Below, in pieces: positions 29,276 through 46,304 of a stretch of DNA of 64,000 nt (position 1 is its first letter; every line of letters begins with the position of its first letter). The stretch is from Candidatus Thiodiazotropha sp. (GTDB lineage: Bacteria; Pseudomonadota; Gammaproteobacteria; Chromatiales; Chromatiaceae): contig JBFNNX010000026.1 in assembly GCA_040791665.1 (NCBI GenBank), positions 49,435 through 113,434 of the forward strand. Reading direction: 5' to 3'. Under the pieces are notes generated by a model. The model saw only the letters and a list, made by a program, of their open reading frames with translations, was not told the DNA's origin and searched no databases. The position numbers and the translations under genes were made by a program.

Positions 29276-29914
29276 CTATTCAGCCAACAGCTGTTGTGCG
29301 CTTCCGGTTTCCAAGCCGAACTCCTCCTCGACCATCTTCAGCCAGCGCTCCCTCTTGAAGGTCTTTTCATCCGGTACTTTTCTGTGTACCAGGTTGATAT
29401 GACAGTCGATGCAGCTTTTTCCTTTAGTCTCTTCGCGGTGTATGGAATTGGTGTCGGCACGTCTGCCTTGAATCGCTTCCAACACATGACATCGCTTGCA
29501 GGTGGCTGAGTCCCTCGCCTTGAACCATTTCCTGGCTTCAAAGGCGGCGTCTGGAAGATGCAGTGTGTTGATCACGGGATCGTCGTAATCCGGTCCAAAG
29601 AGCTTTCCCGAGATTTGGGTCAGGAGATCCTTCCCCCCCAGGAAGTGATCCCAGGTGGCGGCGAAAACGCCTTCGGAGACGTGACAGTCCCCGCAGGATG
29701 CGCGCACACCGGATATGGGTTTATAGTGTGTCGAGAGCCGGTAGGTTTCCGCCGCGATCTCCATGGAGTGACAAGTGGTGCAAAACGCTTCTGAACTGGT
29801 GAGCTCGTCAAATTCAATCAGAAACAGTAGAAATCCGATTCCGGCTATACCACCGATGACAAGTGCAACGAGTACCTGCCGATTTACGAAGTAGGGCAGT
29901 TTCCATTTACTCAT
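29276..29914 (-). CDS. NapC/NirT/cM552-family membrane tetraheme cytochrome c
   Basis: N-terminal TM; CTTCH, CGDCH, CKRCH, CIDCH. Confidence 0.9.
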   Translation of the reverse strand: MSKWKLPYFVNRQVLVALVIGGIAGIGFLLFLIEFDELTSSEAFCTTCHSMEIAAETYRLSTHYKPISGVRASCGDCHVSEGVFAATWDHFLGGKDLLTQISGKLFGPDYDDPVINTLHLPDAAFEARKWFKARDSATCKRCHVLEAIQGRRADTNSIHREETKGKSCIDCHINLVHRKVPDEKTFKRERWLKMVEEEFGLETGSAQQLLAE

Positions 29915-31361
29915 CGGCTTGCCTTTTTATATCGTAACCGAGGATCGGATTGGATTTCTGCGGCTGCTTCAGCCACTGATGAAGGTCGTTTGACGTTACA
30001 TATGCCTGGATCAGTTCACTGGCCTTCTCTGCACCGGCAATCTCTTCCAATTGTGGGAGGAATCGGGTGTAGAAGTTTCTTCCGACCAGGTACATACCCT
30101 CCCACCAGGTATGGTTGGCGCTGGCCATCGAAGCGCCATGGCGGGCACGTGCCCCCTCATCGTGCCATAACTCCCAATAGGTGAATTCGATCGGTTCGTC
30201 AAACGGGGTAGGTGTCAAAATGCCTTCGGAGTAGAGGGTTTGCATAATCTGTTTTGCCGGTATACCGAATTTCTCATTGAACAGTTTCACCACGTCGTCA
30301 AACTGCTCCATGAAGCTCTCTGTCAATGCCTTGCTGTGGCATTCCAGGCAAACCAGTTTCATCGCCTGGCGTCTACGCTTCGGTGATGCGACAGCCTTGA
30401 CCTTGCCCATGCTCCCGTCGGCCTTGCTGAGTTCACTGCCACGTCTCGGGGAAGTGTGAGATTCGGGAAGCTCGATTTTCTCACCGTCATCGAAAACCAC
30501 CAGCTGTTGTCTTATTGAAACCGGTGTGTTCAAGCTCCATGCATTGCGCATACCGACGTCGTGGTTTGCCTTCAATTTTCCGGCGGCGCCCATGTGGCAG
30601 GTTACACATGTGGGCGCGGCCACGTAGTCCTTGCCTGCGATCCAGCTGTCACTGTCCAGCGCCATTTCATCCCGGTGCGCTTCAAACTGCATACCATGCT
30701 TAGACGCTTCATATATCGCCTTGTCGGGTGAGTCGGGACCGGAGTGGCATCGGATGCAGGCGCTTGGCTCTCTGGCCTGGGCCTTGGAAAAACGGTGCTT
30801 GCCATGACAGGATGAGCAGGACCCCTTGGAACCATCGGGATTGATCCGCCCGATACCGGAATTGGGCCAGCTTCGCGGATCTAACGAGCCGTCGCCACGC
30901 ACCTCTACCTTGGAGCCATGACACTGGTTGCAGCCGGCAGCCACGATGGCATCGCCACCCACATGTCCCGCCAAGGCGGGTAGCCTGTTTTCAATGATGC
31001 TCACCGCTTCGGAGTGGACCGATCCTTTCTGCTGCTCATACTCGACAGTGTGGCAGCGGGAACAATCCAGGGGGGAGACGATGGTGGCGATAACCTGTCC
31101 TTCATGGGTAATCGCATCATTGTCGTCGACTGAGGCCTTGTGACAGTCAAGGCAGTTGACGCCCGCCTCGGCATGAGCGCTCTTGCGCCACTGCTTTGTT
31201 AAGCCGGATGAGCTCTTCTCATGGCAGCTGATGCACTCCTTGCCCAGGGGATCGCCCCATTCGCTCGGGTCTACGCTGACCTTGGCGGCAAACAGCTCCG
31301 GATTGCAGCAGAGAAGAGCACAGATCAGAAAGCGCCTCAGTAGGGATGGGTTCATTAACAA
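29907..31361 (-). CDS. Hydroxylamine oxidoreductase-like octaheme cytochrome c
   Basis: Eight CxxCH (CISCH, CLDCH, CSRCH, CNQCH, CSSCH, CIRCH, CVTCH, CLECH) with HAO-family motifs GIGRINPDGSKGSC, YEASKHG, APTCVTCH and WHDEGARARHG. Confidence 0.88.
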   Translation of the reverse strand: MLMNPSLLRRFLICALLCCNPELFAAKVSVDPSEWGDPLGKECISCHEKSSSGLTKQWRKSAHAEAGVNCLDCHKASVDDNDAITHEGQVIATIVSPLDCSRCHTVEYEQQKGSVHSEAVSIIENRLPALAGHVGGDAIVAAGCNQCHGSKVEVRGDGSLDPRSWPNSGIGRINPDGSKGSCSSCHGKHRFSKAQAREPSACIRCHSGPDSPDKAIYEASKHGMQFEAHRDEMALDSDSWIAGKDYVAAPTCVTCHMGAAGKLKANHDVGMRNAWSLNTPVSIRQQLVVFDDGEKIELPESHTSPRRGSELSKADGSMGKVKAVASPKRRRQAMKLVCLECHSKALTESFMEQFDDVVKLFNEKFGIPAKQIMQTLYSEGILTPTPFDEPIEFTYWELWHDEGARARHGASMASANHTWWEGMYLVGRNFYTRFLPQLEEIAGAEKASELIQAYVTSNDLHQWLKQPQKSNPILGYDIKRQADE

Positions 31362-31767: not shown

Positions 31768-33063
31768 ATGGAAGCAGTCTCCGCTTCAAGGGCGTTTCAT
31801 GCAATAAGCTTTCTGTTTTCAGCATTGGTTCTGCTCATACTTCCCACAACTGCATTGGCCGGTGCAGACGAACCTATTCACCATGTCTCCTCGGAAGTCT
31901 GTAAAAATTGTCATAAAGAGATCTATAACCAGTGGAAAGGCTCGATGCATGCCCAGAGTACGGCATTGAAGGATCCAATTCATGCCACCTTCTACAAGAA
32001 GGTTGTAGGCAGTCCCGTGGAAGAGGGGGTCAAGCATAAAGCATCTGGCAAATATCCGGTCTGCTTGCAGTGTCATGCACCGAATGCGGCCGTTGACAAG
32101 ACAACCAAGCTCGATGCCAAACCTGCCTATGCGGAAGGGGTCAACTGCGTTGCCTGTCATACCCTGGCAAAATTCAAGGGAACAAGCGGCAAGAATGGCA
32201 AACTGCTGTTGGGACTCAAAGCCTATGAGCGTAAGAATGAACTGCAGGGACCTCAAGGTTTCAACCAGGGACTGACGAAACTGGTCGCGGCTGACGATAT
32301 GTTCGGCGGTGCAGCCAGTGATGAAGACTCGAAACCCAATCCCCATACTCAGGGAGAAGTTGAGCTGGACGGTAAGAAGATCCAGGCCCTGCCGATGGCT
32401 GGGAATCCAGTTTTAATGAAGACAAATGCTGCCTGCATGGGTTGTCATGACAAACGCAACAATCCACATGGCGTTCCACTTTGCCAGACAGGCAATGAGT
32501 ATGCGGGAAGCAATGTTAACTGCCAATCCTGTCATATGCCCGTCGCCGGGGGTATGGTGGATCACGGCATGGGCGGCGGTCATAATCATGCCATGCTAAA
32601 ACGCAGTGTCGTGTTCACCGTGGATGCAGTAAAGACGGGGGATAGCCTGAATGCCACTGTCAAGCTGAAGAACATGCAGCCGCACAGTCTTCCCACGGGC
32701 GCGCCTTTCAGAAACATCTATTTGAAACTCGCGGCCTACGACGCATCGGGCAATGTAGTTTGGCAAAACGCTGAAGGCCATCCCGCCAAAAGCGATTCCA
32801 AAGCCTATTTTGCCTACCTTTTGGCCGATGACAAGGGAGATCCGGCGATGCCTCCGACTGCAACCCAGCTCGGCGTCGATTCGCGTCTCAAACCCTATGA
32901 AGAGCGTATTCTGTCGTACAAAATTCCCGCCAAGGATGCGGTATTGGTAAGAGGAGAGCTCTTCTACAATCTGCTTTGGCCCGTTCTGGTAGAAAAATTC
33001 AAGCACCTACCGGAAGATTTGGTGGCGCCGGAGTCAATCGCTATAGCAGAGGTTAATCTCTAG
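31768..33063 (+). CDS. Exported pentaheme cytochrome c (c554-type domain plus C-terminal beta domain)
   Basis: Signal peptide; CKNCH, CLQCH, CVACH, CMGCH, CQSCH; W..S.HA and HSLPTG motifs. Confidence 0.8.
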   Translation: MEAVSASRAFHAISFLFSALVLLILPTTALAGADEPIHHVSSEVCKNCHKEIYNQWKGSMHAQSTALKDPIHATFYKKVVGSPVEEGVKHKASGKYPVCLQCHAPNAAVDKTTKLDAKPAYAEGVNCVACHTLAKFKGTSGKNGKLLLGLKAYERKNELQGPQGFNQGLTKLVAADDMFGGAASDEDSKPNPHTQGEVELDGKKIQALPMAGNPVLMKTNAACMGCHDKRNNPHGVPLCQTGNEYAGSNVNCQSCHMPVAGGMVDHGMGGGHNHAMLKRSVVFTVDAVKTGDSLNATVKLKNMQPHSLPTGAPFRNIYLKLAAYDASGNVVWQNAEGHPAKSDSKAYFAYLLADDKGDPAMPPTATQLGVDSRLKPYEERILSYKIPAKDAVLVRGELFYNLLWPVLVEKFKHLPEDLVAPESIAIAEVNL

Positions 33064-33074
33064 TCAAGCAAAGT

Positions 33075-33102
33075 CCTCACACCGGTGAGACCCGGTGTGA
33101 GG
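33075..33102. other. Intercistronic 11-bp stem-loop without U-tract
   Basis: CCTCACACCGG-TGAGAC-CCGGTGTGAGG. Confidence 0.6.
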
Positions 33103-33129
33103 CATCTAAAATCTGGTTCGGGGGGCGTT

Positions 33130-34734
33130 ATGTGCTCATTTAAGAGTTGTACACTACGTCTGGCCTCACTGTTGCAGTTCATCTTGTTTCTGATGTTTGC
33201 CATCAACCTGACGGCATCAGATGAGATAATCAGTTCAACGGCCGATCACACTAAGTTCGAATCGCTTCAACAGGCCTTCAGCACAGGTCCGGAAGTGACA
33301 AAAGCCTGTCTCGAGTGCCATACTGAAGCCGCTAGACAGATCCATAAAACCAAACATTGGAATTGGCAATTCACCCACCCCGATACCGGCGAGGAGCTGG
33401 GAAAACAGACAATTGTCAACAATTTCTGCGGTGCCATTGAGACCAATTATGCCCGCTGTACGAGTTGTCATGTCGGTTATGGATGGAAAGACAACAGCTT
33501 CGATTTCAGTTCTGAAACGAATGTCGATTGCCTTGTCTGTCACGACACAACAGGTACCTACAAAAAGTTTCCGACCGGGGCAGGACATCCCCCCTATGTG
33601 GATAAACCCTTCCCGCCCAAGAGCAAAAAGATCTGGAAAGCGCCGGATCTTGCTCATGTGGCCCAGCATGTCGGCAAGACTAGTCGAAAAACCTGTGGCG
33701 CCTGCCATTTTTATGGTGGTGGCGGTGATGGTGTCAAGCATGGTGATCTCGATTCGAGTATGACCGATCCAAGCAAATCGCTCGATGTCCATATGGGCAC
33801 GGATGGGCTGGATTTCGTCTGCAGTACCTGCCACCAGAAAGATGGGCACGATGTATCGGGCAGTCGATATACCACTCAGGCCAAGGATACACAGGGTATC
33901 GATGTGCCGGGTCGTGGCGATAATATCCGCTCGACCTGCGAGTCCTGCCACGGCCTCAAGCCTCATCCCGTCACGGTAAACAACAAACTGAACGATCACA
34001 TCAACAAGGTTGCCTGCACAACATGCCATATTCCAACCTATGCCAGGGGCGGCAAGCCGACCAAGACCTGGTGGGACTGGTCAACGGCAGGGCGTATGAG
34101 CAATGACGGTAAACACATCAAGACAAAAGATGACCAGGGCTATGTAAACTACGTCACCAAAAAAGGCTCTTTCGAATGGGGTGAAAACCTGAAACCGGAA
34201 TATGCTTGGTTTTCGGGCAATATTCGTTATAAGCAACTCGATGAAAAGATCGATCCCAACAAGGTCGTTGCAATCAATACCTTCGAAGGGAGTTATGATG
34301 ACCCTGATGCCAGGATCTGGCCATTTAAGGTGATGCGGGGCAAACAGCCCTATGACAAAGGCAACAACACCCTGGTAACGACCCATCTCTTCGGCAAGGA
34401 CAGTAATGCATATTGGAAGTCCTTTGATTGGAACAGGGCAATTAAAGCAGCCATGGATGCAGGTAATGCCGCATACAGCGGCGAATACGGTTTCATCGAA
34501 ACCACCTACCACTGGCCGTTGGCACATATGGTTGCCCCTGTAGACCAGGCGCTCGGCTGTGAAGCCTGTCATGCAAAGGATGGTCGGCTAAGTAAGCTCA
34601 CTGGTTTTTACATGCCCGCTCGGGACAGTTACTACTGGGTCGATCTGATCGGCTGGCTGGCGGTCTTGGGTACCGTGGGGGGTATTTCCATCCATGGCTT
34701 GGGTCGGCTCTTCTCGAAAGCCAAGCGGAGATAA
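33130..34734 (+). CDS. otr: Octaheme tetrathionate reductase (Otr) family cytochrome c
   Basis: TADH..F, eight CxxCH, NNFC...RCTSCH, GGGGDGVKHGDL, WDWSTAG, C-terminal TM. Confidence 0.88.
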   Translation: MCSFKSCTLRLASLLQFILFLMFAINLTASDEIISSTADHTKFESLQQAFSTGPEVTKACLECHTEAARQIHKTKHWNWQFTHPDTGEELGKQTIVNNFCGAIETNYARCTSCHVGYGWKDNSFDFSSETNVDCLVCHDTTGTYKKFPTGAGHPPYVDKPFPPKSKKIWKAPDLAHVAQHVGKTSRKTCGACHFYGGGGDGVKHGDLDSSMTDPSKSLDVHMGTDGLDFVCSTCHQKDGHDVSGSRYTTQAKDTQGIDVPGRGDNIRSTCESCHGLKPHPVTVNNKLNDHINKVACTTCHIPTYARGGKPTKTWWDWSTAGRMSNDGKHIKTKDDQGYVNYVTKKGSFEWGENLKPEYAWFSGNIRYKQLDEKIDPNKVVAINTFEGSYDDPDARIWPFKVMRGKQPYDKGNNTLVTTHLFGKDSNAYWKSFDWNRAIKAAMDAGNAAYSGEYGFIETTYHWPLAHMVAPVDQALGCEACHAKDGRLSKLTGFYMPARDSYYWVDLIGWLAVLGTVGGISIHGLGRLFSKAKRR

Positions 34735-34738
34735 ATCA

Positions 34739-35341
34739 ATGAGCCAAATCTATTATTTCTCACTCTTTGAACGCCTGTGGCATTGGTCTCAAGCGATACT
34801 GATATTCGGTATGCTGATAACCGGATTTGAAATCCACGGAACCTATCATTTGTTCGGCTTTGAACAGGCTATCGACCTGCATACGATCATGGCATGGGTA
34901 CTGATCGGCTTGTGGCTGCTCGCACTGTTTTGGCATACAACCACTGGGGAGTGGCGCCAGTATGTGCCGAGCGATCCTGACAGCATGCTGGCAATGGTCA
35001 AGTATTATGCAGTCGGTATCTTTCTCGGTGCGCCACATCCCTTCCACCGGAAACGCGCGGAAAAGCACAATCCGCTGCAGAGAATGGCTTATTTGATGCT
35101 AACAATGGTCATTTCACCGATTATCTGGATCAGTGGATTACTCTATCTTTTTTATCAATACTGGCCATCCATCGGACTGCAGGACGTGCAGCTTGGGTTG
35201 ATTGCTGTCGTGCACACAATCGGCGCATTCGCAATACTTTGCTTTATACCCATTCATCTCTATTTGGCTTTGACAACGGGAGAAAAGCCTTTTGGAAACC
35301 TGGTGGAGATGATAGTCGGGCATGAGGCCAAGGATGGTTGA
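34739..35341 (+). CDS. Cytochrome b subunit (PhsC / Ni-hydrogenase cytochrome b type)
   Basis: FERLWHWSQA, LHTIMAW, KHNPLQRMAY, VHTIGAF...IHLY; four TM with heme His residues. Confidence 0.85.
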   Translation: MSQIYYFSLFERLWHWSQAILIFGMLITGFEIHGTYHLFGFEQAIDLHTIMAWVLIGLWLLALFWHTTTGEWRQYVPSDPDSMLAMVKYYAVGIFLGAPHPFHRKRAEKHNPLQRMAYLMLTMVISPIIWISGLLYLFYQYWPSIGLQDVQLGLIAVVHTIGAFAILCFIPIHLYLALTTGEKPFGNLVEMIVGHEAKDG

Positions 35342-35552: not shown

Positions 35553-36941
35553 CTACTTATCTATTCCGTAGCGTTTCATCTTCTGCCATAAGTTTTTACG
35601 GGAAATGCCCAAGGAATCTGCTGTCTGGTTGATTTTGCCGCTATTTTCCGCCAATGCCCTGACAATTGACTTTCTTTCAGCTTCTTCAATAGTCTCTTTA
35701 AGTGTGGTTGTGTCGTGATCGTGGGCGCTGTTGTCCGTGATAGACAGGTCGTTTTTGCTGATCCAAGGTCCATCGCACAGGGCGACAGCTCTTTCGATGA
35801 TATTTTTAAGTTCACGAACATTTCCAGGGAATGACATGGATTGAAGATAGAGTTCAGCCTCCTTCGACAAACCTTTGACGCCCCCTTTTTTACATTGTCC
35901 AAGCTGGCTGACGAACTGCCTTGCAAGATAGACGATATCCTCCCTGCGTTGACGCAGTGGTGGGATATCGATATGGATTACATTGAGACGCCAGTAGAGA
36001 TCCGATCTGAATTCGTTTTTTTCAATAGCTACATCGAGGTTGGCCTGGGTTGCGGCGATTACCCTTACATCAAGCGGGATTGAAACAGATCCGCCAACAC
36101 GTTCAAACTCCCTCTCCTGCAGCACTCTCAGCAGTTTTACCTGTATGTCAGACGATACTTCCGCAATTTCATCAAGAAAGATGGTGCCCCCTTGAGCCTG
36201 CTCAAAACGCCCTTTTCGTTGATGTGTCGCTCCTGTAAAGGAGCCCTTTTCATGACCGAAGAGCTCACTTTCGATCAGTGTGGAAGGTAGGGCGGCACAG
36301 TTTACACTTACCATGGGGCCTTGTGACCTGAGACTGTTGTTGTGGATCAGGTTTGCAACGACTTCCTTGCCAACCCCGGACTCTCCTGTAAGCAATACTG
36401 AACTGTCACTCTCTCTGAGACGTGCCACCAGTCTCTCGATCTTTCGCATAGCGTTGCTTTTTCCCAAACAACCGCTACCCGGTTTGAGATGATCAATTGC
36501 CGCGCTCGAGCCTTTGGTCGTCAATTGGTTGTCAGAGATACAAGAGAGCTGATGAATTACTTTCTTTATAAAATCATTGATGTCAAATGGTTTTGTAAGA
36601 TAATCAAAAGCGCCGGCTTTAACTGTGGCGACTGCGTCCGATATATCGCCATAGGCCGTCATGAGGATGACTGGTATGCCTGGAAAATTGCTTGAGATAT
36701 CTGTAAAGAGTTCGATCCCTGTGCCATCCGGTAGACGGATATCGGTTACCACTAGGTCAATATCACCTTTTTCCAGCTCTTTTCTTGCGCTCGCGGTATC
36801 GCTTACCGCACGCACGGGAATCGATTCCATGCGTAACCTGTCAACAAGAGAGATTTGCATGATTTCATCATCTTCAACCAGCAATAGACATAAGTCTTTG
36901 AATCTACCCCTATCCATTGTGTAATCGATACTATTCTGCAT
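35553..36941 (-). CDS. Sigma-54-dependent response regulator (NtrC family, AioR-like)
   Basis: Receiver (VEDD, DIRLPD, KPF), AAA+ (GESGVGKE, ELFGHEKGSFTGA, FLDEI), Fis-type HTH. Confidence 0.95.
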   Translation of the reverse strand: MQNSIDYTMDRGRFKDLCLLLVEDDEIMQISLVDRLRMESIPVRAVSDTASARKELEKGDIDLVVTDIRLPDGTGIELFTDISSNFPGIPVILMTAYGDISDAVATVKAGAFDYLTKPFDINDFIKKVIHQLSCISDNQLTTKGSSAAIDHLKPGSGCLGKSNAMRKIERLVARLRESDSSVLLTGESGVGKEVVANLIHNNSLRSQGPMVSVNCAALPSTLIESELFGHEKGSFTGATHQRKGRFEQAQGGTIFLDEIAEVSSDIQVKLLRVLQEREFERVGGSVSIPLDVRVIAATQANLDVAIEKNEFRSDLYWRLNVIHIDIPPLRQRREDIVYLARQFVSQLGQCKKGGVKGLSKEAELYLQSMSFPGNVRELKNIIERAVALCDGPWISKNDLSITDNSAHDHDTTTLKETIEEAERKSIVRALAENSGKINQTADSLGISRKNLWQKMKRYGIDK

Positions 36942-38425
36942 TAGGCCGCCTGTCTGTTGATTACAGGCAGTTCGATGAGGAAAGTCGTGCCTTTTCCTAC
37001 CTCGCTCTCAACCTCGATAATACCTTGCATATTCTGAACCAGACGATAGACGACCCAAAGCCCCAATCCCGTGCCATTGGGTTTGGTCGTAAAGAAAGGA
37101 TCGAACATTTGGTTTCTTATATTTGAGGCAACACCGGGGCCATTGTCACTGACTTTGATTACGAGAAGACTTCCTTCCTGATGCATGTTGAAAGCAATGG
37201 TTCCATTCTCGGGAATGATTTCAACGGCGTTCTTCAGCAAATTGCAGATAATCTGTTCGGTCTTTCCCGGAATACAGGTATCTCTATCGGTCTTATTGTT
37301 CCAGAATATTTTGATATCTCTTTCACCTATTTCAGCCAGGATCAAATCATGAAGCTTGTCGACCTGTTCAATATTTATCATTTCATCACTCTCCTCGTTC
37401 TTGAGCCCAACGAGCAGGTTGTGGACAATATCCTTGATCCGATGCAGACCCTGGTCAATCACCGGTAGATAACGATCGATCAACTCCTTGTCGTTTGGAT
37501 GCTGACGTAGCGTATCTATGCAGTTTAATAGCCCTGCCAGAGGATTGTTTACCTCATGTGCCACACCTGCGGTTATTCTTCCTAGGGCAACCAACTTCTC
37601 GCTCATTGCGATCTCCTCCTCGAGCATCTTTTTTTCCGCAAGTTCAGACATGATTTGATTGAAGGTCACACTGAGCCTCCCTATTTCATCCCCCTCTTTC
37701 ACCGGTATTGGAGAAAAATCTGTCATCTCTCCACGCCCAACCGCCTCAAGTCCATGAGTTATTGCAGTCAAAGGTCCGACCACCCGCCTGGATACTATGG
37801 TGCCCAGCAGGCTTCCGATGATGACAAAGAGCAATATTGAAAGGAGAACGATTACAGTTGTCGACTTTGCCTTTTCAAACAGACTGGCGACAGAGAGGCG
37901 AACCCGAACTACTCCAAGGTATTTTTGATCTGAAAACAGAGGTACGACACCTTCCTGGAATCCATCCCTGGAAAAGAAATCCCCACTACTCAATACAGTC
38001 GGGGTTCTTGCGGCCATCGCCTGATTGGCTATCGTTTTATCAGCTTCATTTTCTGGAGAGAATACGAGGCCTATCGGGTGCTTCGCAGGATGAAGGTGCG
38101 CCTGAACTACACCTTCTGCATCCAATATCATCGCATCTATAATTTCATGTTCGCTTCTGGCCCCAGGTCCCTTAGACGCCATATTCTTGAGACTGAGGTA
38201 AAGAGACCAGTAGTCCTTACGCAGCATTGCCTTTGGTGCAGTGATTGAAATGGATTCTGATAGCAGCAGCGCTTTCTCACCCAGGTCATTTTGAAATCGA
38301 TTCCAGTCCTGGAGAACCATGAGGCCTCCGATGAGGAATCCGACACTGGTGACAACGGCCGTTATGGTAAGGGATAACTTTATCGCCAATGGCCAGGATT
38401 TTGGATTAATCATGGGCATTTGCAT
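36941..38425 (-). CDS. HAMP sensor histidine kinase (AioS-like)
   Basis: Two TM, HAMP (GDEIGRL), AHEVNNPL, NLLKNA, DNGPG, FFTTKPNGTGLGL. Confidence 0.93.
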   Translation of the reverse strand: MQMPMINPKSWPLAIKLSLTITAVVTSVGFLIGGLMVLQDWNRFQNDLGEKALLLSESISITAPKAMLRKDYWSLYLSLKNMASKGPGARSEHEIIDAMILDAEGVVQAHLHPAKHPIGLVFSPENEADKTIANQAMAARTPTVLSSGDFFSRDGFQEGVVPLFSDQKYLGVVRVRLSVASLFEKAKSTTVIVLLSILLFVIIGSLLGTIVSRRVVGPLTAITHGLEAVGRGEMTDFSPIPVKEGDEIGRLSVTFNQIMSELAEKKMLEEEIAMSEKLVALGRITAGVAHEVNNPLAGLLNCIDTLRQHPNDKELIDRYLPVIDQGLHRIKDIVHNLLVGLKNEESDEMINIEQVDKLHDLILAEIGERDIKIFWNNKTDRDTCIPGKTEQIICNLLKNAVEIIPENGTIAFNMHQEGSLLVIKVSDNGPGVASNIRNQMFDPFFTTKPNGTGLGLWVVYRLVQNMQGIIEVESEVGKGTTFLIELPVINRQAA

Positions 38426-38434
38426 TCTAAAATA

Positions 38435-39304
38435 TTAATCGCTTTGTACTACGGAGTACCTGGGGTCAGCTCTTTGAACTGTATTTTCCAAAGTGCGGAT
38501 TTCGTTGAACAGCGAATCAGAATAGTGACCAAACCCATCCAGTTTGAGCCGGTCGAGCAGTTCCTTGCCGGTTAAATCCTTATCCATGTTCTCAAGTGTC
38601 TGCTTCATCTTTTTTACTATGTTGTCATCTATGCCTAAACGGTAAACAATAGGCGGAAAACCAAAGCTTGGAGACTTCTTTATTATCCGGGTTTTTTCAG
38701 TAATGTCTGGTTTGAAGACGGCAATGTACTCCCAGATATACGAGTCTACGGCTCCGCCATCTGCAACCTGCTCGGAAACGGCTTGCACCGTCTCAGCGTG
38801 ATTGAAGGTAAAAAAGGTTTCTCGGAAAAAGCTCTCGGGTTTCTCTCCTTTTTTTACCACCAAGGCAAGAGGATAGAGGAAGCCTGAATTCGAGTCAGGG
38901 TCAGAGAAGGCAAAACTTTTTCCTTTCAAGTCGCTAAAGCGTTTATAGGGACTGCTGTGATGGACAATAATATAAGAGTAATAATGCGGTGATCCCCGGT
39001 AGACAGGTACTGTCAGGAGCTGAAGTGATTCCGGTTCTCTTGCCTGGATGTAAGGATAACCGCATATCCATGCGAATTCGATACCACCTGATTCCAATAG
39101 GTCCATCACCTCTCGATAGGACTTTCTCTGCACAAACTCGACCTTCCGGCCTATTTTGTGTTCCAGGTATTGACTCCACTGGTCCAGAAATCTGAGGTTT
39201 TCAGTAAGTACCACAGCCGTCAAGCCAAAGCGGATAGGTGTATCCATATTGGCGGCATAAAGCGGGGTAATCCAGAAGAGCAATAATAAAAGGGTCAATC
39301 GCAC
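38435..39304 (-). CDS. PhnD-fold periplasmic oxyanion-binding protein, AioX/ArxX-like
   Basis: Signal peptide; FAWICGYPY, FAFSDPDSNSG, FTFNH, VDSYIW motifs as in AioX-type sensors; co-transcribed with the kinase and regulator, with no ABC permease or ATPase nearby. Confidence 0.8.
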   Translation of the reverse strand: MRLTLLLLLFWITPLYAANMDTPIRFGLTAVVLTENLRFLDQWSQYLEHKIGRKVEFVQRKSYREVMDLLESGGIEFAWICGYPYIQAREPESLQLLTVPVYRGSPHYYSYIIVHHSSPYKRFSDLKGKSFAFSDPDSNSGFLYPLALVVKKGEKPESFFRETFFTFNHAETVQAVSEQVADGGAVDSYIWEYIAVFKPDITEKTRIIKKSPSFGFPPIVYRLGIDDNIVKKMKQTLENMDKDLTGKELLDRLKLDGFGHYSDSLFNEIRTLENTVQRADPRYSVVQSD

Positions 39305-39341
39305 TTGGGTTCCTCGTTAATATAACTTCTCAGGGATACAG

Positions 39342-39377
39342 TTAAGGCCTATCGGATTATTGTTAACAGGCCCTAAG
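39342..39377. repeat. 35-bp dispersed imperfect palindromic element, copy 2
   Basis: TTAAGGCCTATCGGATTATTGTTAACAGGCCCTAA(G). Confidence 0.75.
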
Positions 39378-39793
39378 TTTATGCCACGGTACCAGTGCGA
39401 TAAATGTCATGTGCACCCTGTGGAGAACAAGGGCCGTCTCTGGCTTCGCCTTCCTGTAGTTTCATAATTGCTATCTTCCAATGATAGCAGAATCCATTGT
39501 TTAATCTGGAAGTCCTTGTTTTTTTTAATTGCGCAAGTTTATTGCCCTGATTACCTATTTGTACTCTCAATTTAAGAGACGAGTGAAGAGGCTATCATTT
39601 TAATGCTTCTCCCTTTTGCTGTTTGTTACCGTCCGGTAACAGACTGTACGGCACTATTTCACTAACGATATGTAATTAAAGAACAAACCAGAACGGTTAC
39701 GGTTTCAACTGAAACGTTACCAAGAGGTAACAAAATTTGGATTGCTAATTCTATCGTTATATGTTTTTTCCAATATTTCAGGCAGATATGAAT

Positions 39794-39810
39794 TTGGAAC
39801 GACTCTTGCT
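39794..39810 (+). promoter_or_regulatory. Sigma-54 (-24/-12) promoter of the cytochrome/Mo-enzyme operon
   Basis: TTGGAACGACTCTTGCT has GG-N10-GC with a close consensus match, 67 bp before the ATG at 39878. Confidence 0.8.
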
Positions 39811-39877
39811 GATATTCTGAGAACCTTTTCATTTCAAGAAAAAAAGCGAATCTGCCTGACTGGAGGATACAAGGGCA

Positions 39878-41398
39878 ATGAACAGTGGCGCTGGAGTTCA
39901 ATTTAGAGTTACCTGGCGACAGATGGCACTGATTTGCGCGGGAACGGTTCTTTTCCTGTTAACGGCCTGGGGCGGTGTCGAGTATTATACATCGCAGTCA
40001 TCGTTTTGCGGTGGCAGCTGCCACACCATGACAGAGCAGTATGAAGCCTGGAAGTCAAACTATCACTACAAGAGCAACAATCCGGATGGTATGCAAGCAG
40101 AGTGCGTCGATTGCCATTTTCTTCCCGGCAAGAAGCATTCTCTGAAGGCCAAGTACGAAGGATTACGCCACCTTGCAGCCTACCTTTATGATCCGGATGC
40201 GCCACTGCCCATACGTCCGGTCATCAAGGATGGCGCTTGCCTACAGTCTGGCTGTCATGAGCGTGAGAAACTGGCGGTAGTAGAGATACAGTATACTGAG
40301 AGAGTCCGCTTCAAACACGAGGTTCACTTTAGTGACAAGGCTCTTGATGGTCACCAAATCACCTGCGATACCTGCCACTTCAAGACAACGAAGAACAAGC
40401 ATTTCGAGGTGCCTGAGGATATCTGTTTCCTATGTCACCTTAAACTGGATAAACCCACTCTTGATAAAGCGGAGATGGCCAATGGAGAGATTAAGAAAAT
40501 CACCTTCGTCAACAAGCCAGCCATCGATTTCAACCAAGGGGTATCCCGCTGTGATATCTGCCACACGATCCCAACAAGATCACTTCAAAGCCAGTTGCAG
40601 GTAGGAGACCCTGCCAGCACCAAGAAACCGATCACCCATCAGACAATACAGGAATCAGGAGTTGCTTGTGAGAGTTGCCACTTCGAGGTGGTGAGCGGCG
40701 AGGGCGAGATTGATACCGGAAACGTCGTCTCGAATGGCTGTCTTACTTGCCATAACAGAAGTCAGACGTTACTGGCAACTGCAGATGACCGTGAACTCAT
40801 GCATGGCAAGCATGTGCCGAACAAGGCTGACTGTTTCGATTGTCACAGTGTGATCGAACACAAGAACAGAACTGATCATCTTGATTTTGTACGCAATGAC
40901 TGTCAGCTCTGTCATGTCGACCAGCACAAGTACCAAAGGCTATTACTTTCAGGCTCTCCTGTTGATGAGGACATCTCGGGTGACCCGCATCTTATGTACG
41001 AAGTCAACACAAACTGCATGGGCTGTCATCTCAAGAAGACGCTGAGTAATGGGCATGATGTTCGGACAGCATCAGGTGATACCTGTGCTGCCTGCCATAC
41101 GGAGCAGCACAGGAAAATGCTCAGTGACTGGAAGAGTTTACTGACCAATGAGGTAGCAGATGTGGAAGAGGTCGAGAAGGAAGCCACGCAACTCTTCGCC
41201 GAACTGAAGGGTAGGTTGGACAATGAGAAATTGACTCAAGCGGAGGAAATGCTCGCCAAGGGAGGCGAACTTCTCAATATTGTACGTGTTGGTAACGGAG
41301 TACATAACAAAAAGTACGCAGTAAACATTCTCGACGGTGCATTCGCAAATTTCGAAGACACCATTGAGCTATTGGAAAACGCAACTAACAGTGAATGA
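39878..41398 (+). CDS. Membrane-anchored dodecaheme cytochrome c with NapC-like N-terminus
   Basis: One N-terminal TM; ten CxxCH plus CGGSCH (CX3CH) and CLQSGCH (CX4CH); helical C-terminus with GVHN. Confidence 0.85.
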   Translation: MNSGAGVQFRVTWRQMALICAGTVLFLLTAWGGVEYYTSQSSFCGGSCHTMTEQYEAWKSNYHYKSNNPDGMQAECVDCHFLPGKKHSLKAKYEGLRHLAAYLYDPDAPLPIRPVIKDGACLQSGCHEREKLAVVEIQYTERVRFKHEVHFSDKALDGHQITCDTCHFKTTKNKHFEVPEDICFLCHLKLDKPTLDKAEMANGEIKKITFVNKPAIDFNQGVSRCDICHTIPTRSLQSQLQVGDPASTKKPITHQTIQESGVACESCHFEVVSGEGEIDTGNVVSNGCLTCHNRSQTLLATADDRELMHGKHVPNKADCFDCHSVIEHKNRTDHLDFVRNDCQLCHVDQHKYQRLLLSGSPVDEDISGDPHLMYEVNTNCMGCHLKKTLSNGHDVRTASGDTCAACHTEQHRKMLSDWKSLLTNEVADVEEVEKEATQLFAELKGRLDNEKLTQAEEMLAKGGELLNIVRVGNGVHNKKYAVNILDGAFANFEDTIELLENATNSE

Positions 41399-41460
41399 TC
41401 TTTCAACAAACACACAATCAACAGTAGCGGAGGATGAGAAGATGCGTAGGAGAATACGAT

Positions 41461-42312
41461 ATGAGTGACAACAAAACACCAGACATCAACCGTCGCAAAT
41501 TCCTGAGTGGTGTAGGCACAGCCGCGGTAGGCGCTGCGGCCTTGGCGACACCGAGGGTAAGTCTTGAAGCAGCCCAATCAAAAGCACCTCGATGGGCGAT
41601 GGTCATGGACCTGAGGCGCTGCATAGGCTGCAGGGCCTGTACAGTCGCCTGCAAATCGGAAAACAACGTTTCGTTGGGCCGCTTCCGGGCAGTCATCCAA
41701 GAGAAAACCATGGGCACCTTTCCAAAGACCAAAAAGGAATTCTTACCCCTGATGTGCAATCACTGCGAGGGCAATGAGAAAGATGGCGTTCCTCCTTGTG
41801 TGAAAATATGTCCGGAGTATCCAGGCAAACGGGCCAAGTTCAAAACATCTGATGGCAAAACAATACGCTATCGCACAGGTGCGACCTATAAGCGTCCCGA
41901 TGGCATGATCCTGATAGACAAAGAAAAATGTATCGGCTGCGGTAAGTGTATCGATGCCTGCCCGTACGGGGTGCGTTCATTTGATCCCTTTGTAAAAGCG
42001 GGTGGTGACCAGACAAAGCAGGCAGCGGACAAATGCGATCTGTGTGCGCATCGTGTCGATAACGGGATCGAACCCTCCTGCGTCAACACTTGCCAGGGTC
42101 GCGCACGTATTTTCGGAGACCTGAACGATCCGAGCAGCGAAGTCTCCAAGCTTGTAAAAGAGCACAACCTGGCCAAGGCAGACAATGTACTGCTTCCGGA
42201 AGAGGGAACCAATCCACATGTGTTCTACATCGATCCCGACAACATGTTGAAAACCCTCTATACACAGCGAAAGAAGGGCAAGCTGGACCACTTTGTGGAC
42301 CAGATTCCATAG
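41461..42312 (+). CDS. Tat-exported 4x[4Fe-4S] electron-transfer subunit (TtrB/PsrB/DmsB family)
   Basis: NRRKFL Tat motif; DLRRCIGCRACTVAC, CNHC...CVKIC, CIGCGKCIDAC, CDLC...CVNTC. Confidence 0.92.
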   Translation: MSDNKTPDINRRKFLSGVGTAAVGAAALATPRVSLEAAQSKAPRWAMVMDLRRCIGCRACTVACKSENNVSLGRFRAVIQEKTMGTFPKTKKEFLPLMCNHCEGNEKDGVPPCVKICPEYPGKRAKFKTSDGKTIRYRTGATYKRPDGMILIDKEKCIGCGKCIDACPYGVRSFDPFVKAGGDQTKQAADKCDLCAHRVDNGIEPSCVNTCQGRARIFGDLNDPSSEVSKLVKEHNLAKADNVLLPEEGTNPHVFYIDPDNMLKTLYTQRKKGKLDHFVDQIP

Positions 42313-42345
42313 ACCCTGAGAGCCTGTATTAAGAGAGGAAATGAT

Positions 42346-44871
42346 ATGAAAAAGTTAAATCGTCGTGATTTCATGAAATTGACTGCCGGCAGCGGCTGTG
42401 CATTGGCGACTGGATTGGGCTGCAGTCAGAGCGCATTTGCCGGATCGCTTAAACTGCAGGCAGGCGGCAAGGATTTTTCACCTACAACAGGTAAGGAGAG
42501 AAAGGCAATCCCCACAGCCTGCTGGCAGTGTGTAACCCGAGACTCCATGATCGGTTATGTGGAGGATGGGCGCCTGGTAAAGCTCGAGGGACATCCCGAT
42601 TCCATACGCACACTCGGCAAACTCTGTGCCAAGGGACAGGCGGGTATCAACCAGGTCTATTTCCCGGACCGGATCCTGCACCCAATGAAACGCGTAGGCA
42701 AACGTGGCGAGCACAAGTGGAAACGAATTTCCTGGGACGAGGCCCTTGATCTGGTTGTATCCAAGCTGAAACCTCTGCGTGATGCGGGTACCCCAGAACT
42801 GTTTATGTATCAGTACGGAAGACACAAGGCGTCTCAGGCCGCGACCATGTACGACTTCATGCAGGCCTATGGCACTGGCACCATCGGTAATCACACCTCT
42901 GTCTGCGAGGCGGCAAAATGGGTGGGACAAGAGAGTCTTTGGGGCGGCATGTATGACAACTGGGATTATGACAAAACCGATTACGTGGTGATTTTCGGCA
43001 GCAATCAGTTCGAGACCCATACCAATCACATTCCGACCGCCCAGCGTCTGATTCGGGCCAAGGTTGATCGTGGTGTACCCCTATACGTATTCGATGTGCG
43101 CCTGACAAATACCGCAGCCAAGGCCGATCAGTGGGTGCCGATCAATGTGGGACATGACGGACTGGTGATGCTGGCCATGTGCAATGTCATCATGAACGAG
43201 AAACTCTACAGGAAGGACCACTTCAAATTCATGCGTGTCACCGAAGACTACAAGGCGACTGTCGATGAGAAGATTGCAGCCGTGAAGAAAAATGTCGCCA
43301 AGTACACCCCTGAGTTTGCAGAGAAACACAGTGGCGTGCCTGCCGATACCATACGCAAGATCGCTCGCGGATTCGCAAAAGCCAAATCGGCCTGCCTGGT
43401 TACCTACCGTGGAACGGTAATGCACTATCACGGCGCAGATCAGGAACGGGCGGCAATGCTGTTGTCGGCCATTACCAACAATCTCGATCGTCCGGGTGGT
43501 CGTGTCATGGGTGTTGGAGCAGGCTGGAAACATCCTTCCTCCCCCAAGGCAAAGGTTCACAAAACCCTCCACGTCAAGGACGGATTTCCGGGTGAAGCGG
43601 CCTACCCGACTCACCATGTAAGTCACCAGGTACTTCCGATGATCAAAGATGGCAACGCGGGTCGACCGAAGGTCTACTGGTGGAGTTGCTACAACCCAGG
43701 GTTCATCAATGGCGACAACAAGGAACTCCAGTCGATCCTGAAAGATGAGAGCATCATCCCATTCCTCATTACAACAACCATCGTCTACGACGAGTCCTCT
43801 CAGTATGCAGACCTGATCCTGCCCGACGTCACCTACCTGGAACGCTGGGACTGGGAGGACATGGTGTCGGCAAATCAGATCGCAGAATTCTATATCCGGC
43901 AGCCATTGGTGAAACCGTTGGGAGAATCACGTTGCCAGGGCGATGTCTGGCCCGAGCTGGCCAAGCGCATGGGCTTTGAACTGGCATACTCCAGCAAGGA
44001 GGACTTCGTACGCCAGTCCTGCGAGATGACGCCCGGCGTGCGTGAGGCCGGGGGCTTCGAGTATATGAAGAAGCACGGTGTTTGGCACGATCCGAACGCC
44101 AAGCCCAACTACGGCTTCTATGAGAACAAGGTGGACGTATCCGGCGATGGCGTGATTCTCGACGAGAAGACCGGAGTCTACTGGAACTGGAAAAAGGCGG
44201 GTGTCAACAGCGAAGCCGAGGCCAAGCGTCAGGGGTATCTGGGTACAAAAGGCGCGAAAAAGGCGTATGTCGCGCAAAACATCGATGGCGCGGCATACAA
44301 GGCCTACCCGCCCAATACCAAGTTCGTCAAGGCGGGATATCTGGACTTCTATTCAGATAATTTCGTCAAAAAGGGCTTTCCGGCATTCCCATCCTATACA
44401 CCGATTCCTGAACACCAGAAGATGGCGGATGATGAGCTGAATCTCACCACCTACAAGGTGGCGGTACATACCCATTCAAGGACCGCACACTGCAAGTGGC
44501 TCACCGAGATCAAGCACGATAATCCCGGCTGGATCAATACCAAGACGGCTGAAGCGCGCGGTATTAAGAACGGTGACAAGATCAGGGTCTATAACAGCCT
44601 GGGTGAGATCACCACCACAGCCTATGTCACCGAGGGTATTATTCCGGGCGTGATCGCCATATCCCATCACCTGGGTCGCAAGCACTCGGGGGTCTATGGA
44701 TCGGGCAAGCGTTCTCCCACGCCAGGTGGTGCCACAGCTGATCCGGATGTGAAGAATATATGGTGGAAAAAACATGGCACTCATCCCAATACCATCATCC
44801 CCAACTCTTCAGATCCTATCAGCGGCACACAGAGGTGGATGGATACCGTCGTCAGGGTAGCCAAGGCATAA
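42346..44871 (+). CDS. Tat-exported Mo/W-bisMGD oxidoreductase catalytic subunit (Psr/Phs/Ttr/Arr branch of the DMSO reductase family), substrate unknown
   Basis: NRRDFM Tat motif; FS0 region CWQCVTRD...KLCAKG; putative Mo-ligand Cys in GNHTSVCEAAK; LILPDVTYLERW; C-terminal MGD-binding domain. Confidence 0.9.
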   Translation: MKKLNRRDFMKLTAGSGCALATGLGCSQSAFAGSLKLQAGGKDFSPTTGKERKAIPTACWQCVTRDSMIGYVEDGRLVKLEGHPDSIRTLGKLCAKGQAGINQVYFPDRILHPMKRVGKRGEHKWKRISWDEALDLVVSKLKPLRDAGTPELFMYQYGRHKASQAATMYDFMQAYGTGTIGNHTSVCEAAKWVGQESLWGGMYDNWDYDKTDYVVIFGSNQFETHTNHIPTAQRLIRAKVDRGVPLYVFDVRLTNTAAKADQWVPINVGHDGLVMLAMCNVIMNEKLYRKDHFKFMRVTEDYKATVDEKIAAVKKNVAKYTPEFAEKHSGVPADTIRKIARGFAKAKSACLVTYRGTVMHYHGADQERAAMLLSAITNNLDRPGGRVMGVGAGWKHPSSPKAKVHKTLHVKDGFPGEAAYPTHHVSHQVLPMIKDGNAGRPKVYWWSCYNPGFINGDNKELQSILKDESIIPFLITTTIVYDESSQYADLILPDVTYLERWDWEDMVSANQIAEFYIRQPLVKPLGESRCQGDVWPELAKRMGFELAYSSKEDFVRQSCEMTPGVREAGGFEYMKKHGVWHDPNAKPNYGFYENKVDVSGDGVILDEKTGVYWNWKKAGVNSEAEAKRQGYLGTKGAKKAYVAQNIDGAAYKAYPPNTKFVKAGYLDFYSDNFVKKGFPAFPSYTPIPEHQKMADDELNLTTYKVAVHTHSRTAHCKWLTEIKHDNPGWINTKTAEARGIKNGDKIRVYNSLGEITTTAYVTEGIIPGVIAISHHLGRKHSGVYGSGKRSPTPGGATADPDVKNIWWKKHGTHPNTIIPNSSDPISGTQRWMDTVVRVAKA

Positions 44872-44900
44872 ATTAAGTCTACTGAAAGAGGAGAGCTGAA

Positions 44901-45554
44901 ATGGGAACCGACTGGAATAAAATGGCCGATAACGCCAAAACAAGAAGTGACACGTATGGGTTATTGACCCTGGTCTTTCGGCAGGAGCCCAGCGAAGCCT
45001 TCATCAACGAACTGAGGGGGCCCCGCTTGGCGGGGGCCTTCTCGGACATGGAGCTGGACATGGGTGGCTCTTTTTACAGCGAACCCGTATCAACCATAGC
45101 CGATCAACTTGCGCTTGAATTTTCGCGCCTGTTCATAGGTCCTGGTCGGCATATTTCTGCCCATGAATCGATTTTCACTGAAGTGGATGGTGACTCAGGC
45201 GGTTTGTGGGGCGCCAGAACAGTTGAAGTGAAGAAGTTCATCGAGACAACCGGACTTGATTACGCTTCCCAGTTCACGGGCCTGCCTGATCATATCAGCG
45301 TTGAACTTGAGTTCATGCAGAAACTGACCCAGTGGGAATCCGCCAAGTGGATGGAGATGGATCGCAAAAGCGCGGAGTACTGCCTGTCAATTCAGCGTAT
45401 GTTCTTGCAACAGCACATACTGGGTTGGATACCCAAGTTCTGTGATGCGGTGATATTTCAGGCCGACATGCCTTTTTACCGTGAACTGGCTGGATTGATG
45501 AAAAACTTCCTTGAGTTCGAACAGCAGAGCCTGGCAATCGAATCAGCCGCTTAG
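44901..45554 (+). CDS. TorD/DmsD-family redox enzyme maturation chaperone
   Basis: EFSRLFIGPG, AHESIF, LPDHISVELEFM, FLQQHILGWIP. Confidence 0.92.
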   Translation: MGTDWNKMADNAKTRSDTYGLLTLVFRQEPSEAFINELRGPRLAGAFSDMELDMGGSFYSEPVSTIADQLALEFSRLFIGPGRHISAHESIFTEVDGDSGGLWGARTVEVKKFIETTGLDYASQFTGLPDHISVELEFMQKLTQWESAKWMEMDRKSAEYCLSIQRMFLQQHILGWIPKFCDAVIFQADMPFYRELAGLMKNFLEFEQQSLAIESAA

Positions 45555-45632: not shown

Positions 45633-46304
45633 TCAGGGTCTTCTTTTTGAGCCGTACCGATTATGAAGAGTGATCTCTTGATCGGGCATCATACCTAGTT
45701 CCCTGCCTTCCTTGATGGCGAAGCCGATAGGTGCCCCAAGATTCATCCGGTAGGCCGCCCACATGGTCCCAAGCAGTTCCGCTCTCGGAGCATAGACCAA
45801 CAGCATTCCATGGCTGGCATCTACAACGTGTTGAGTGAAATTCTCCACCTGCTCCAGACTCGGTAGGTTGCCGTCAACCGGGATGCTTATATAGCGCATA
45901 CCCAGCGCTTCGGTCTCCAGTTGATGCAGGCGAGCAGTTTTTTTCGGTGTGCCAAGATCGATTACCGTTTTAAATCCAAACGCCTCCAGCTCAGCAATAC
46001 GATTGAGCGGCCGCCCCATGGTGGCCTGCAGATAAGGTATGGCGCGGCCTGGGTCAGGTATTGCAATGCCGTAACCCATCCGTCCCGGAAGCTTTGACGA
46101 GTGATGGTTAAGCATTTGGGGTAACACCCTTCCGTCCGGGGTAGTTGCTACTTCGCTATCATCCCTATTTACTTCACCATCACCCCACCAACCACATGCA
46201 CCGACCTGTCCCGGAGACATTAAAATGATGCATAACAGAAATAGGGTGGACGAAGCTATAGTGTTACATGGTTTTACTGCACTGAACATGGGATTGAGTC
46301 TCAA
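45633..46304 (-). CDS. Exported protein with a DUF442/PTP-like domain lacking the catalytic Cys
   Basis: Hydrophobic leader, CGWWGDGE, GFKTVIDL, GMRYISIPV; LLVYAPRAE stands where HCxxGxR is expected. Confidence 0.55.
   Translation of the reverse strand: MRLNPMFSAVKPCNTIASSTLFLLCIILMSPGQVGACGWWGDGEVNRDDSEVATTPDGRVLPQMLNHHSSKLPGRMGYGIAIPDPGRAIPYLQATMGRPLNRIAELEAFGFKTVIDLGTPKKTARLHQLETEALGMRYISIPVDGNLPSLEQVENFTQHVVDASHGMLLVYAPRAELLGTMWAAYRMNLGAPIGFAIKEGRELGMMPDQEITLHNRYGSKRRP

Follow-up and report, generated by a model that had tools for sequence, protein, structure and literature searches.

We analysed a 64,000-nt stretch of Candidatus Thiodiazotropha sp. (assembly GCA_040791665.1, contig JBFNNX010000026.1), here called the window, to which all positions refer unless another contig or locus is named. 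Between 35553 and 45554 it carries a module of seven genes. The module represents a widespread and so far uncharacterised form of the arsenic molybdoenzymes under XSR control, and its electron-transfer partner is new. In this module a periplasmic sensor protein (X), a sensor histidine kinase (S) and a response regulator (R) are encoded divergently from an operon for a dodecahaem cytochrome c, an iron-sulfur (FeS) subunit (B), a catalytic molybdenum (Mo) subunit (A) and a chaperone (D). With roughly even confidence we read the module as an arsenic-responsive respiratory system whose enzyme interconverts arsenite and arsenate, and which in this organism is favoured as an arsenite oxidase feeding the quinone pool.

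Open reading frames (ORFs) and domain searches showed three genes on the minus strand, a 573-bp intergenic gap and four genes on the plus strand. R (35553-36941, minus strand) is an NtrC-type sigma-54 enhancer-binding response regulator with Response_reg (2.8e-26), Sigma54_activat (1.6e-69) and Fis-type HTH_8 domains in Pfam, and is below every NCBIfam equivalog cut-off. Its reading frame overlaps by 1 nt with that of S (36941-38425, minus strand), a membrane sensor histidine kinase with HAMP, HisKA and HATPase_c domains. X (38435-39304, minus strand) is a periplasmic PhnD-fold sensor protein (Pfam Phosphonate-bd, 6e-58). The plus-strand operon has the gene order cytochrome-B-A-D, with a spacing of 29-36 nt between the genes. 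It starts with the cytochrome (39878-41398, 506 aa), which has an N-terminal transmembrane helix, a NapC/NirT N-terminal region and 12 haem motifs. This is followed by the FeS subunit (41434-42312), which resembles TtrB, DsrO and ArrB, is exported by the twin-arginine translocation (Tat) system as judged by its twin-arginine signal and has four Cys clusters, and by the catalytic subunit (42346-44871, 841 aa), a Mo/W-bis(pyranopterin guanine dinucleotide) (bisPGD) protein with the Tat motif RRDFMK. The last gene (44901-45554) encodes a Tat proofreading chaperone of the TorD/DmsD family; it contains the PF02613 domain (Nitrate_red_del, 4.3e-22, 79.1 bits against a cut-off of 22.2) and adjoins the gene of its Tat substrate. 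No NrfD-type gene is found in the operon, and no membrane subunit is encoded besides the cytochrome. A sequence-only reading of this DNA had described a binding protein-kinase-NtrC operon divergent from a -24/-12 promoter, the order of 12-haem cytochrome, Tat FeS subunit, Tat Mo-enzyme and TorD, and the lack of an NrfD-type anchor. All genes were found where it had placed them, with the domains it had assigned; the order of the operon was confirmed gene for gene, and a NapC/NirT-headed cytochrome takes the place of the anchor. In public databases the nearest proteins, at 96-97% identity, belong to Candidatus Thiodiazotropha, whose members live in lucinid clams as sulfur-oxidising symbionts.

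The module is not confined to these symbionts. Relatives of the catalytic family were found in 294 species-level genomes, mostly marine, of sulfate reducers, of symbionts of sponges and lucinid clams, and of bacteria from marine sediments and oxygen-deficient seawater. For a survey of synteny, 79 loci from other genomes with a relative of the Mo subunit were sampled, and XSR together with the cytochrome-B-A-D gene set was present in most of them, which is far beyond chance.

The gap between the two operons contains a sequence match to a sigma-54 (-24/-12) promoter, TGGAAC-N5-TTGCT (39795-39810, plus strand), 67 nt upstream of the start codon of the cytochrome. Two palindromes of the form GTTACC-N4-GGTAAC, here called upstream activating sequence (UAS) 1 (GTTACCGTCCGGTAAC, 39625-39640) and UAS2 (GTTACCAAGAGGTAAC, 39716-39731), are candidate binding sites for R; UAS2 is 91 bp from UAS1 and lies 64 bp upstream of the -24 element. 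They are the only exact GTTAC-N6-GTAAC palindromes in the window, where 0.01 are expected, and among the eight such sites in the whole 5.03-Mb genome they form the sole neighbouring pair. A GTTACC-N4-GGTAAC pair with a spacing of 91-93 bp recurs in approximately 50 related loci of Gamma- and Alphaproteobacteria. Using a strict pattern for the -24/-12 element, we found TGGCAC/TGGCAT-N5-TGC in approximately 35 of those loci, between the second palindrome and the cytochrome gene and 78-92 bp from the former. The palindrome pair is kept even in loci in which XSR is relocated downstream of the operon. Both UAS1 and UAS2 fit the AioR consensus, GTT-N10-AAC (PMC5335332), and the arrangement as a whole, an RpoN promoter behind such palindromes, is that of an AioR-type regulon; rpoN itself was found in the genome by a six-frame motif search. 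This constitutes a strong phylogenetic footprint for an AioR-like enhancer-binding protein as the predicted activator of the operon, and agrees with the earlier suggestion that the sensor controls a sigma-54 operon. A match with one mismatch to an integration host factor site is present between UAS2 and the promoter (39731-39743), but no claim is made for it, since the window contains 66 matches of this kind where 52 are expected, which is no enrichment. Scans for terminators and sigma-70 promoters gave nothing over background.

The best match of X in the PDB was AioX of Rhizobium NT-26 (6esk, E=5e-61); for ArrX the value was 3e-41. The pocket of AioX is formed by Tyr88, Cys106, Tyr131, Ser161, Ser163, His192 and Asp210 (PMC5908839). 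X retains all seven of these residues, both in the alignment to 6esk and in a multiple alignment, and hence belongs to the AioX/ArxX/ArrX subfamily. The signalling loop of AioX (residues 53-61) is long, hydrophobic and ordered by arsenite, whereas the loop of ArrX is shorter and more polar (PMC5908839). In X, the loop GLTAVVLTENLRF aligns without gaps to GLTPVFLSNDLEV of AioX, has the same length and is hydrophobic, as in the arsenite type; the alignment of ArrX to X begins only past this loop. For each of AioX, ArxX and ArrX the ligand is the substrate of its own enzyme, and AioX and ArxX have been shown experimentally to bind arsenite (PMC5908839). Neither a paralogue of X nor AioA was found in the genome.

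The sensors that accompany the enzyme in other genomes were informative as well. In five loci from Rhodobacterales and relatives (L033, L041, L058, L071 and L078), where the A subunit is 66-80% identical, the XSR immediately ahead of the same operon has an X of the AioX clade (53-59% identity to AioX of NT-26). In a sixth locus (L063) the operon lies behind an ArxX-clade X. No aioBA or arx genes were seen in the ORF lists of these six loci. Family members from Desulfobacterota and an outgroup clade (P0289, P0460) have ArrX-clade sensors, and all sensors found beside the enzyme lineage are of the Cys-containing arsenic-sensor subfamily.

The Mo subunit reached no curated family cut-off. The best model was PhsA (NF012032), with 334 bits below half of its cut-off of 694, and the scores for ArrA (NF041714) and TtrA were 167 against 1600 and 115 against 1750 bits, respectively. 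The family of the subunit comprises more than 120 clusters at 59-96% identity, named no further than 'molybdopterin-dependent oxidoreductase'. An IQ-TREE tree of 51 sequences was built from representatives of a search of 1.84 billion proteins and from labelled references, namely ArxA of two classical arx clusters, PhsA and YnfF from annotated plasmids, and an ArrA-type enzyme from the same genome as the window. In this tree the family was monophyletic (100/99) and nested in a superclade without a name (100/100), whose sister was the clade with ArrA and ArxA (100/97). The PhsA clade fell outside the superclade, and the family was part of neither the ArrA/ArxA nor the PhsA clade. None of the superclade members scanned reached an equivalog cut-off. 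The enzyme had been called an unclassified Mo/W enzyme, and this description held, both against the curated models and in the tree, where it was inside no characterised clade among those included. No protein named AnrA or SrrA was seen among the homologues of P0001, of the Azoarcus relative described below and of P0289, nor in cluster look-ups. A match on a Thermomicrobium plasmid is not accompanied by an XSR.

Active-site columns were aligned to Shewanella ArrA, with the numbering of the 6cz7 alignment. The pocket residues are reported (Glasser et al. 2018) to be R165, Y166 (ArrA) or G (ArxA), H189, S190, C193, K198 and Y210. At these columns the window family has R, H (M in the 59-64% subclade), H, T, C, W (with K one position earlier) and Y, ArxA has R, G, H, S, C, E or V, and Y, and the ArrA-type enzyme of the same genome has R, Y, H, S, C, K and Y, which is the full ArrA signature. 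In the numbering of the window Mo subunit the residues are R159, H183, T184 and Y203, with Cys187 as the Mo ligand. PhsA is without the Arr-type Arg and Tyr, and PsrA, in a pairwise alignment, without the Arr-type Arg and His. For the AlphaFold model of the Mo subunit (predicted local distance difference test score 83) the best fold match was ArrA (6cz7, E=3e-45, template modelling score 0.71-0.75), narrowly before PsrA; by sequence, the best PDB match was PsrA (2vpw). The motif of the FS0 cluster at 42520-42543 (residues 59-66), CWQCVTRD, follows the pattern CxxCxxxD...C, with Asp in the place of the third Cys. This Asp is conserved across the family and in the Azoarcus-type clade, whereas Cys is kept in two basal members (L092 and L094) and in outgroups such as P0126, P0127, P0129, P0132 and P0136. 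The distribution suggests that FS0 of the family is a derived, Asp-ligated or [3Fe-4S] cluster.

The cytochrome matched PF03264 (NapC/NirT) over residues 18-101 with 58.6 bits (cut-off 24.1, 8.5e-16). With an N-terminal transmembrane helix followed by a haem module it is a member of the NapC/NirT/NrfH family, while it is below the cut-offs of all the specific equivalog models (NrfH, TorC and NapC). Instead of the 4-5 haem motifs of this family it has 12, made up of ten CxxCH, one CX3CH and one CX4CH. For eleven of them conservation extends to 69-70 of 70 relatives, and for the first motif to 45 of 70. No sequence relative was found among solved structures. The cytochrome is presumed to be both the quinone/quinol interface and the electron wire of the system.

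The ArrA-type enzyme of the same genome is encoded on contig C10 (C10:97878-104271, L017:6878-14271). It has the complete ArrA active-site signature and scores 1137 bits against the cut-off of 1600. Its cluster includes ArrB, a DmsD/TorD chaperone and a polyferredoxin, is preceded by an Otr-family octahaem cytochrome and a PhsC-like cytochrome b, and is adjoined by acr3. No XSR is present in this cluster. Control of the cluster by the same R found no support, as GTTAC-N6-GTAAC is absent from contig C10.

Gene content, export signals, conservation of the module, promoter architecture, phylogenetic position and conserved residues are direct results; what X binds, which substrate is turned over and in which direction are our inferences from them. 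In the mechanism that we propose, the periplasmic ligand of X would be arsenite or a closely similar trivalent oxyanion, and X would signal via S to R. R would then bind both GTTACC-N4-GGTAAC sites and activate the promoter at 39795-39810. The A/B molybdoenzyme, matured by the TorD-type chaperone and exported to the periplasm by Tat, is expected to dock on the membrane-anchored 12-haem cytochrome, whose NapC/NirT-type head would exchange electrons with the quinone pool in place of an NrfD-type anchor. For arsenite oxidation, the electrons would run from Mo via FS0, the FeS subunit and the haems to quinone. The sequence-only reading had proposed a metalloid or a sulfur oxyanion as substrate. 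The Arr/Arx-like active site, ArrA as the nearest fold and the arsenite-clade sensors at the same operon elsewhere narrow this towards arsenic, with sulfur and selenium less favoured. Oxidation of arsenite is favoured because of the arsenite-type sensors, the separate ArrA-type reductase on contig C10 and the nitrate- or oxygen-respiring lithotrophic hosts. The same direction is favoured in the other Gamma- and Alphaproteobacteria with arsenite-type sensors. The potentials of As(V)/As(III) and ubiquinone are close, so that either direction is feasible, and Arr enzymes are reported to run both ways in vitro.

Several observations weigh against this reading of the module. Identity of the pocket does not settle the choice of ligand (PMC5908839). 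X is 40% identical to AioX and 43-46% to ArxX, and beside the pocket His it reads H-A-E, a systematic difference from the H-R-N/K of AioX and ArxX. In a tree of X proteins, X of the window and most X of the family formed a separate lineage, outside both the AioX/ArxX/Azoarcus clade (96/90) and the ArrX clade (100/99). On its sequence X is a third lineage of the AioX/ArxX/ArrX sensor subfamily and not a strict AioX orthologue; the label AioXSR-like, which it had received, is borne out as far as subfamily membership goes (pocket, loop and PDB match), but not as orthology. In the Mo subunit, the column that separates ArrA (Tyr166) from ArxA (Gly) is His in the family and Met in the Desulfobacterota subclade, and the column of Lys198 is Trp, with Lys at 197. 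Since AnrA, SrrA, PsrA, TtrA and SrdA were absent from the enzyme tree, the family may be kin to one of these. It is also frequent in genomes from ordinary marine sediments and water columns, which contain little arsenic, and ars genes are near only 4 of the 79 loci (at most 10 kb away, in L072, L081, L092 and L095). Finally, the usual role of NapC/NirT/NrfH modules is quinol oxidation, and ArrAB of Shewanella requires CymA, a protein of the NapC family; the NapC-type head and the CymA precedent favour the reductase direction.

This direction would make the enzyme a respiratory arsenate (or antimonate) reductase, an alternative that we take seriously while considering it unlikely. The NapC-type head, of a family that typically functions as quinol dehydrogenase, would oxidise quinol and pass electrons via the haems and the FeS subunit to Mo, and XSR would sense the substrate or the product. 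The set of cytochrome, B and A resembles the CymA, ArrB and ArrA of Shewanella, the pocket residues are equally those of ArrA, and the closeness of the As(V)/As(III) and ubiquinone potentials permits either direction. The ArrX-clade sensors of the Desulfobacterota members and of the outgroup clade (P0289, P0460) fit this explanation too. However, an enzyme with the complete ArrA signature is already present on contig C10, beside acr3, and where another X takes the place of the window type in other genomes, it is from the AioX or ArxX (arsenite) clade. Moreover, the loop of X is long and hydrophobic, as in the arsenite binders, and not shorter and more polar, as in ArrX (PMC5908839).

We regard as improbable a Psr/Phs/Srr-like enzyme that reduces a sulfur or selenium oxyanion (polysulfide, thiosulfate, selenite or tetrathionate), with X retuned to the compound in question. 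The best curated model (PhsA, 334 bits) and the best PDB match by sequence (PsrA, 2vpw) point to such an enzyme, but the score is under half of the PhsA cut-off and the tree groups the family with Arr/Arx and not with PhsA. In addition, PhsA and PsrA both lack the Arg, and PhsA also the Tyr and PsrA also the His, all of which are kept in the family. The host is a sulfur oxidiser, genes of the tetrathionate-reductase octahaem family lie next door, and X is a distinct lineage, with SrrA and PsrA outside the tree sample; the sensors beside the enzyme family are nevertheless all of the Cys-containing arsenic-sensor subfamily. Very improbable, in our view, is a different pyramidal or arsenic-related substrate (antimonite, thioarsenate or methylated arsenic), or a strict Anr-type antimonate reductase. 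Thioarsenic species are favoured by the habitats concerned, which are sulfidic, and the anrXSRBAD cluster of Geobacter sp. SVR reportedly has XSR and then B-A-D, a layout that resembles the window operon; a cytochrome gene is not reported there. No sequence or context that was examined points to these substrates specifically.

Among characterised systems, Arx (arxXSR and arxB2AB1CD, as in Sulfuricella denitrificans pSCD and Cereibacter azotoformans ORIO pORIO3) shares with the window an XSR triplet, placed upstream or divergently, whose sensor is a Cys-containing protein of the PhnD fold and whose regulator is of the NtrC type. Also shared are the Tat-exported, Cys-ligated Mo-bisPGD subunit with its FeS partner and TorD chaperone, and the pocket columns Arg, His, Ser/Thr, Cys and Tyr; in the tree the two are in sister position. 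In contrast to the window, where the order is B-A, Arx has A-B, and the identity is only 26-29%. The arxB2-A-B1-C-D order with an NrfD-type ArxC, by which ArxA is recognised, is not found in the window operon; in place of ArxC and the polyferredoxin ArxB2 the window has the 12-haem NapC-type cytochrome. The window enzyme further differs in the FS0 Asp for the third Cys and in reading YGRH where Arx reads xGRGWG, and its X is of a separate lineage. ArrAB of Shewanella sp. ANA-3 (6cz7) is the nearest solved fold and aligns over the full length, with four pocket residues and the Mo-ligand Cys conserved or conservatively replaced. Shewanella ArrAB is a soluble periplasmic A/B dimer, coupled to quinol via the NapC-family CymA. 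Unlike ArrA, the window enzyme is far from the ArrA cut-off (167 of 1600 bits) and outside the Arr/Arx clade, it has His for Tyr166 and Trp in the Lys198 column, and its 12-haem cytochrome is a product of the operon itself.

AioXSR, the regulator of aioBA in Rhizobium sp. NT-26 and Agrobacterium tumefaciens, is like the window in the fold, pocket and loop length of X, in the architectures of S and R, and in a sigma-54 promoter with GTT-N10-AAC palindromes. It is unlike it in that X of the window, at 40% identity, branches apart from the AioX/ArxX clade, and in that the regulated enzyme is not AioBA. PsrABC and PhsABC (2vpw and the E. coli plasmid PhsA) are also Cys-ligated periplasmic Mo-bisPGD enzymes with a four-cluster FeS subunit, but PhsA forms a separate clade without the Arr-type Arg and Tyr, and the window operon has no NrfD or PhsC anchor. 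In the literature searched we found no description of the module, nothing that links Thiodiazotropha with arsenite or aioX with a multihaem enzyme from the family named after dimethyl sulfoxide reductase (DMSOR), and no mention of such a clade in papers on the phylogeny of the DMSOR family. The candidate for 'alternative arsenite oxidation' in Thioalkalivibrio was looked at and is SoeABC, which is unrelated.

Genes for arsenic resistance accompany some of the relatives. In L092, arsR-acr3-arsD-arsA-arsC lies immediately downstream, and in Magnetovibrio sp. PR-2, an isolate-named strain that carries the operon, arsR and arsP lie directly upstream. Plasmid pAZKH of Azoarcus sp. KH32C (L097, 55928-65091 of the record) encodes a 39%-identical relative with its own XSR, in a B-NrfD-A-TorD operon beside arsA and acr3. 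Homologues of this relative with 80-91% identity are present in Thauera aromatica, Sulfuricystis multivorans, Gallionella and many Rhodocyclales, a group in which this sub-clade is abundant. The nearest outgroup clade (P0289, P0460) has B-(C)-A-D operons with NarL- or NtrC-type regulators. As a broader and decidedly tentative idea, the family and its B-(C)-A-D relatives may form a third bioenergetic arsenic lineage beside Aio and Arr/Arx, in which the direction tracks subclade and sensor type. The 'YGRH' enzymes with AioX/ArxX-like sensors, from marine sulfur oxidisers, clam symbionts and Alphaproteobacteria of oxygen-deficient waters, would then be arsenite oxidases, and the 'YGRM' enzymes with ArrX-clade sensors, from Desulfobacterota, would be arsenate reductases.

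Variants of the regulatory and operon layout were seen in other genomes. In three 'YGRM' loci of Desulfobacterota (L080:3288-7363, L083:2730-7302 and L088:3245-7245), the ArrX-clade sensor is followed by a membrane protein of approximately 735 aa and a small stand-alone receiver. The membrane protein carries a sigma-54 AAA+ domain and is thus a fused, kinase-less activator; the sigma-54 promoter in these loci is approximately 470-630 bp upstream of the cytochrome gene. In L071, from an uncultured member of the Thalassospiraceae, two divergent cytochrome/FeS/Mo sets flank a single AioX-clade XSR, so that the module appears duplicated, and an extra NrfD-type molybdoenzyme operon is present. In L103/L104 (P0147, from a Sedimenticola-related clade), a B-A enzyme of the superclade lies behind an ArsR-rhodanese fusion and a Cys-less PhnD-like binding protein, and before an ABC ATPase; around this related enzyme, regulation or transport is solved in another way.

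Downstream of the chaperone gene, on the minus strand, the window contains a conserved accessory gene (45633-46304). Its product has a hydrophobic N-terminus, by which it is probably exported, and is DUF442/protein tyrosine phosphatase (PTP)-like, with weak Pfam and PDB matches only; it is without the catalytic Cys-X5-Arg loop and has a conserved ACGWWGDGE N-terminus. The gene directly adjoins the operon in 30 of the 79 loci, and in Magnetovibrio sp. PR-2 it is on the same strand as the operon, after TorD.

On the other side of the module, convergent with R, the region 33085-35341 (plus strand) encodes an octahaem cytochrome of the tetrathionate-reductase family (635 bits, over the cut-off) and a cytochrome b561/PhsC-like protein. 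The octahaem protein shares 48% identity with the one encoded ahead of the ArrA-type cluster on contig C10, and a similar pair adjoins the operon in L058; such pairs may recur as a quinol:octahaem module in the company of arsenic-type enzymes. Further upstream, a NapC/TorC-like tetrahaem gene overlaps a gene for a 484-aa multihaem protein resembling hydroxylamine oxidoreductase and hydrazine dehydrogenase (29276-31361, minus strand). Divergent from these, an ExtKL-like multihaem cytochrome is encoded at 31768-33063 (plus strand), which makes this an unusually haem-rich neighbourhood.

Bioenergetic arsenic cycling is currently ascribed to Aio, Arx and Arr, and surveys count only the marker genes of these systems. 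If the broader idea of a third arsenic lineage is true, much of the marine potential for arsenic respiration escapes surveys of arrA, arxA and aioA. A further lineage in approximately 300 species-level genomes, with its own arsenite-type sensor and a new route to quinone, would alter estimates of arsenic redox potential. The conserved Asp at FS0, the 12-haem anchor that replaces NrfD and the Cys-less PTP-like partner are of enzymological interest. Magnetovibrio sp. PR-2, if in culture, makes the hypothesis directly testable, and the Azoarcus-type sister clade has cultured carriers of its own. With such a lineage, chemosynthetic symbionts such as Candidatus Thiodiazotropha would gain an unrecognised electron donor or acceptor.

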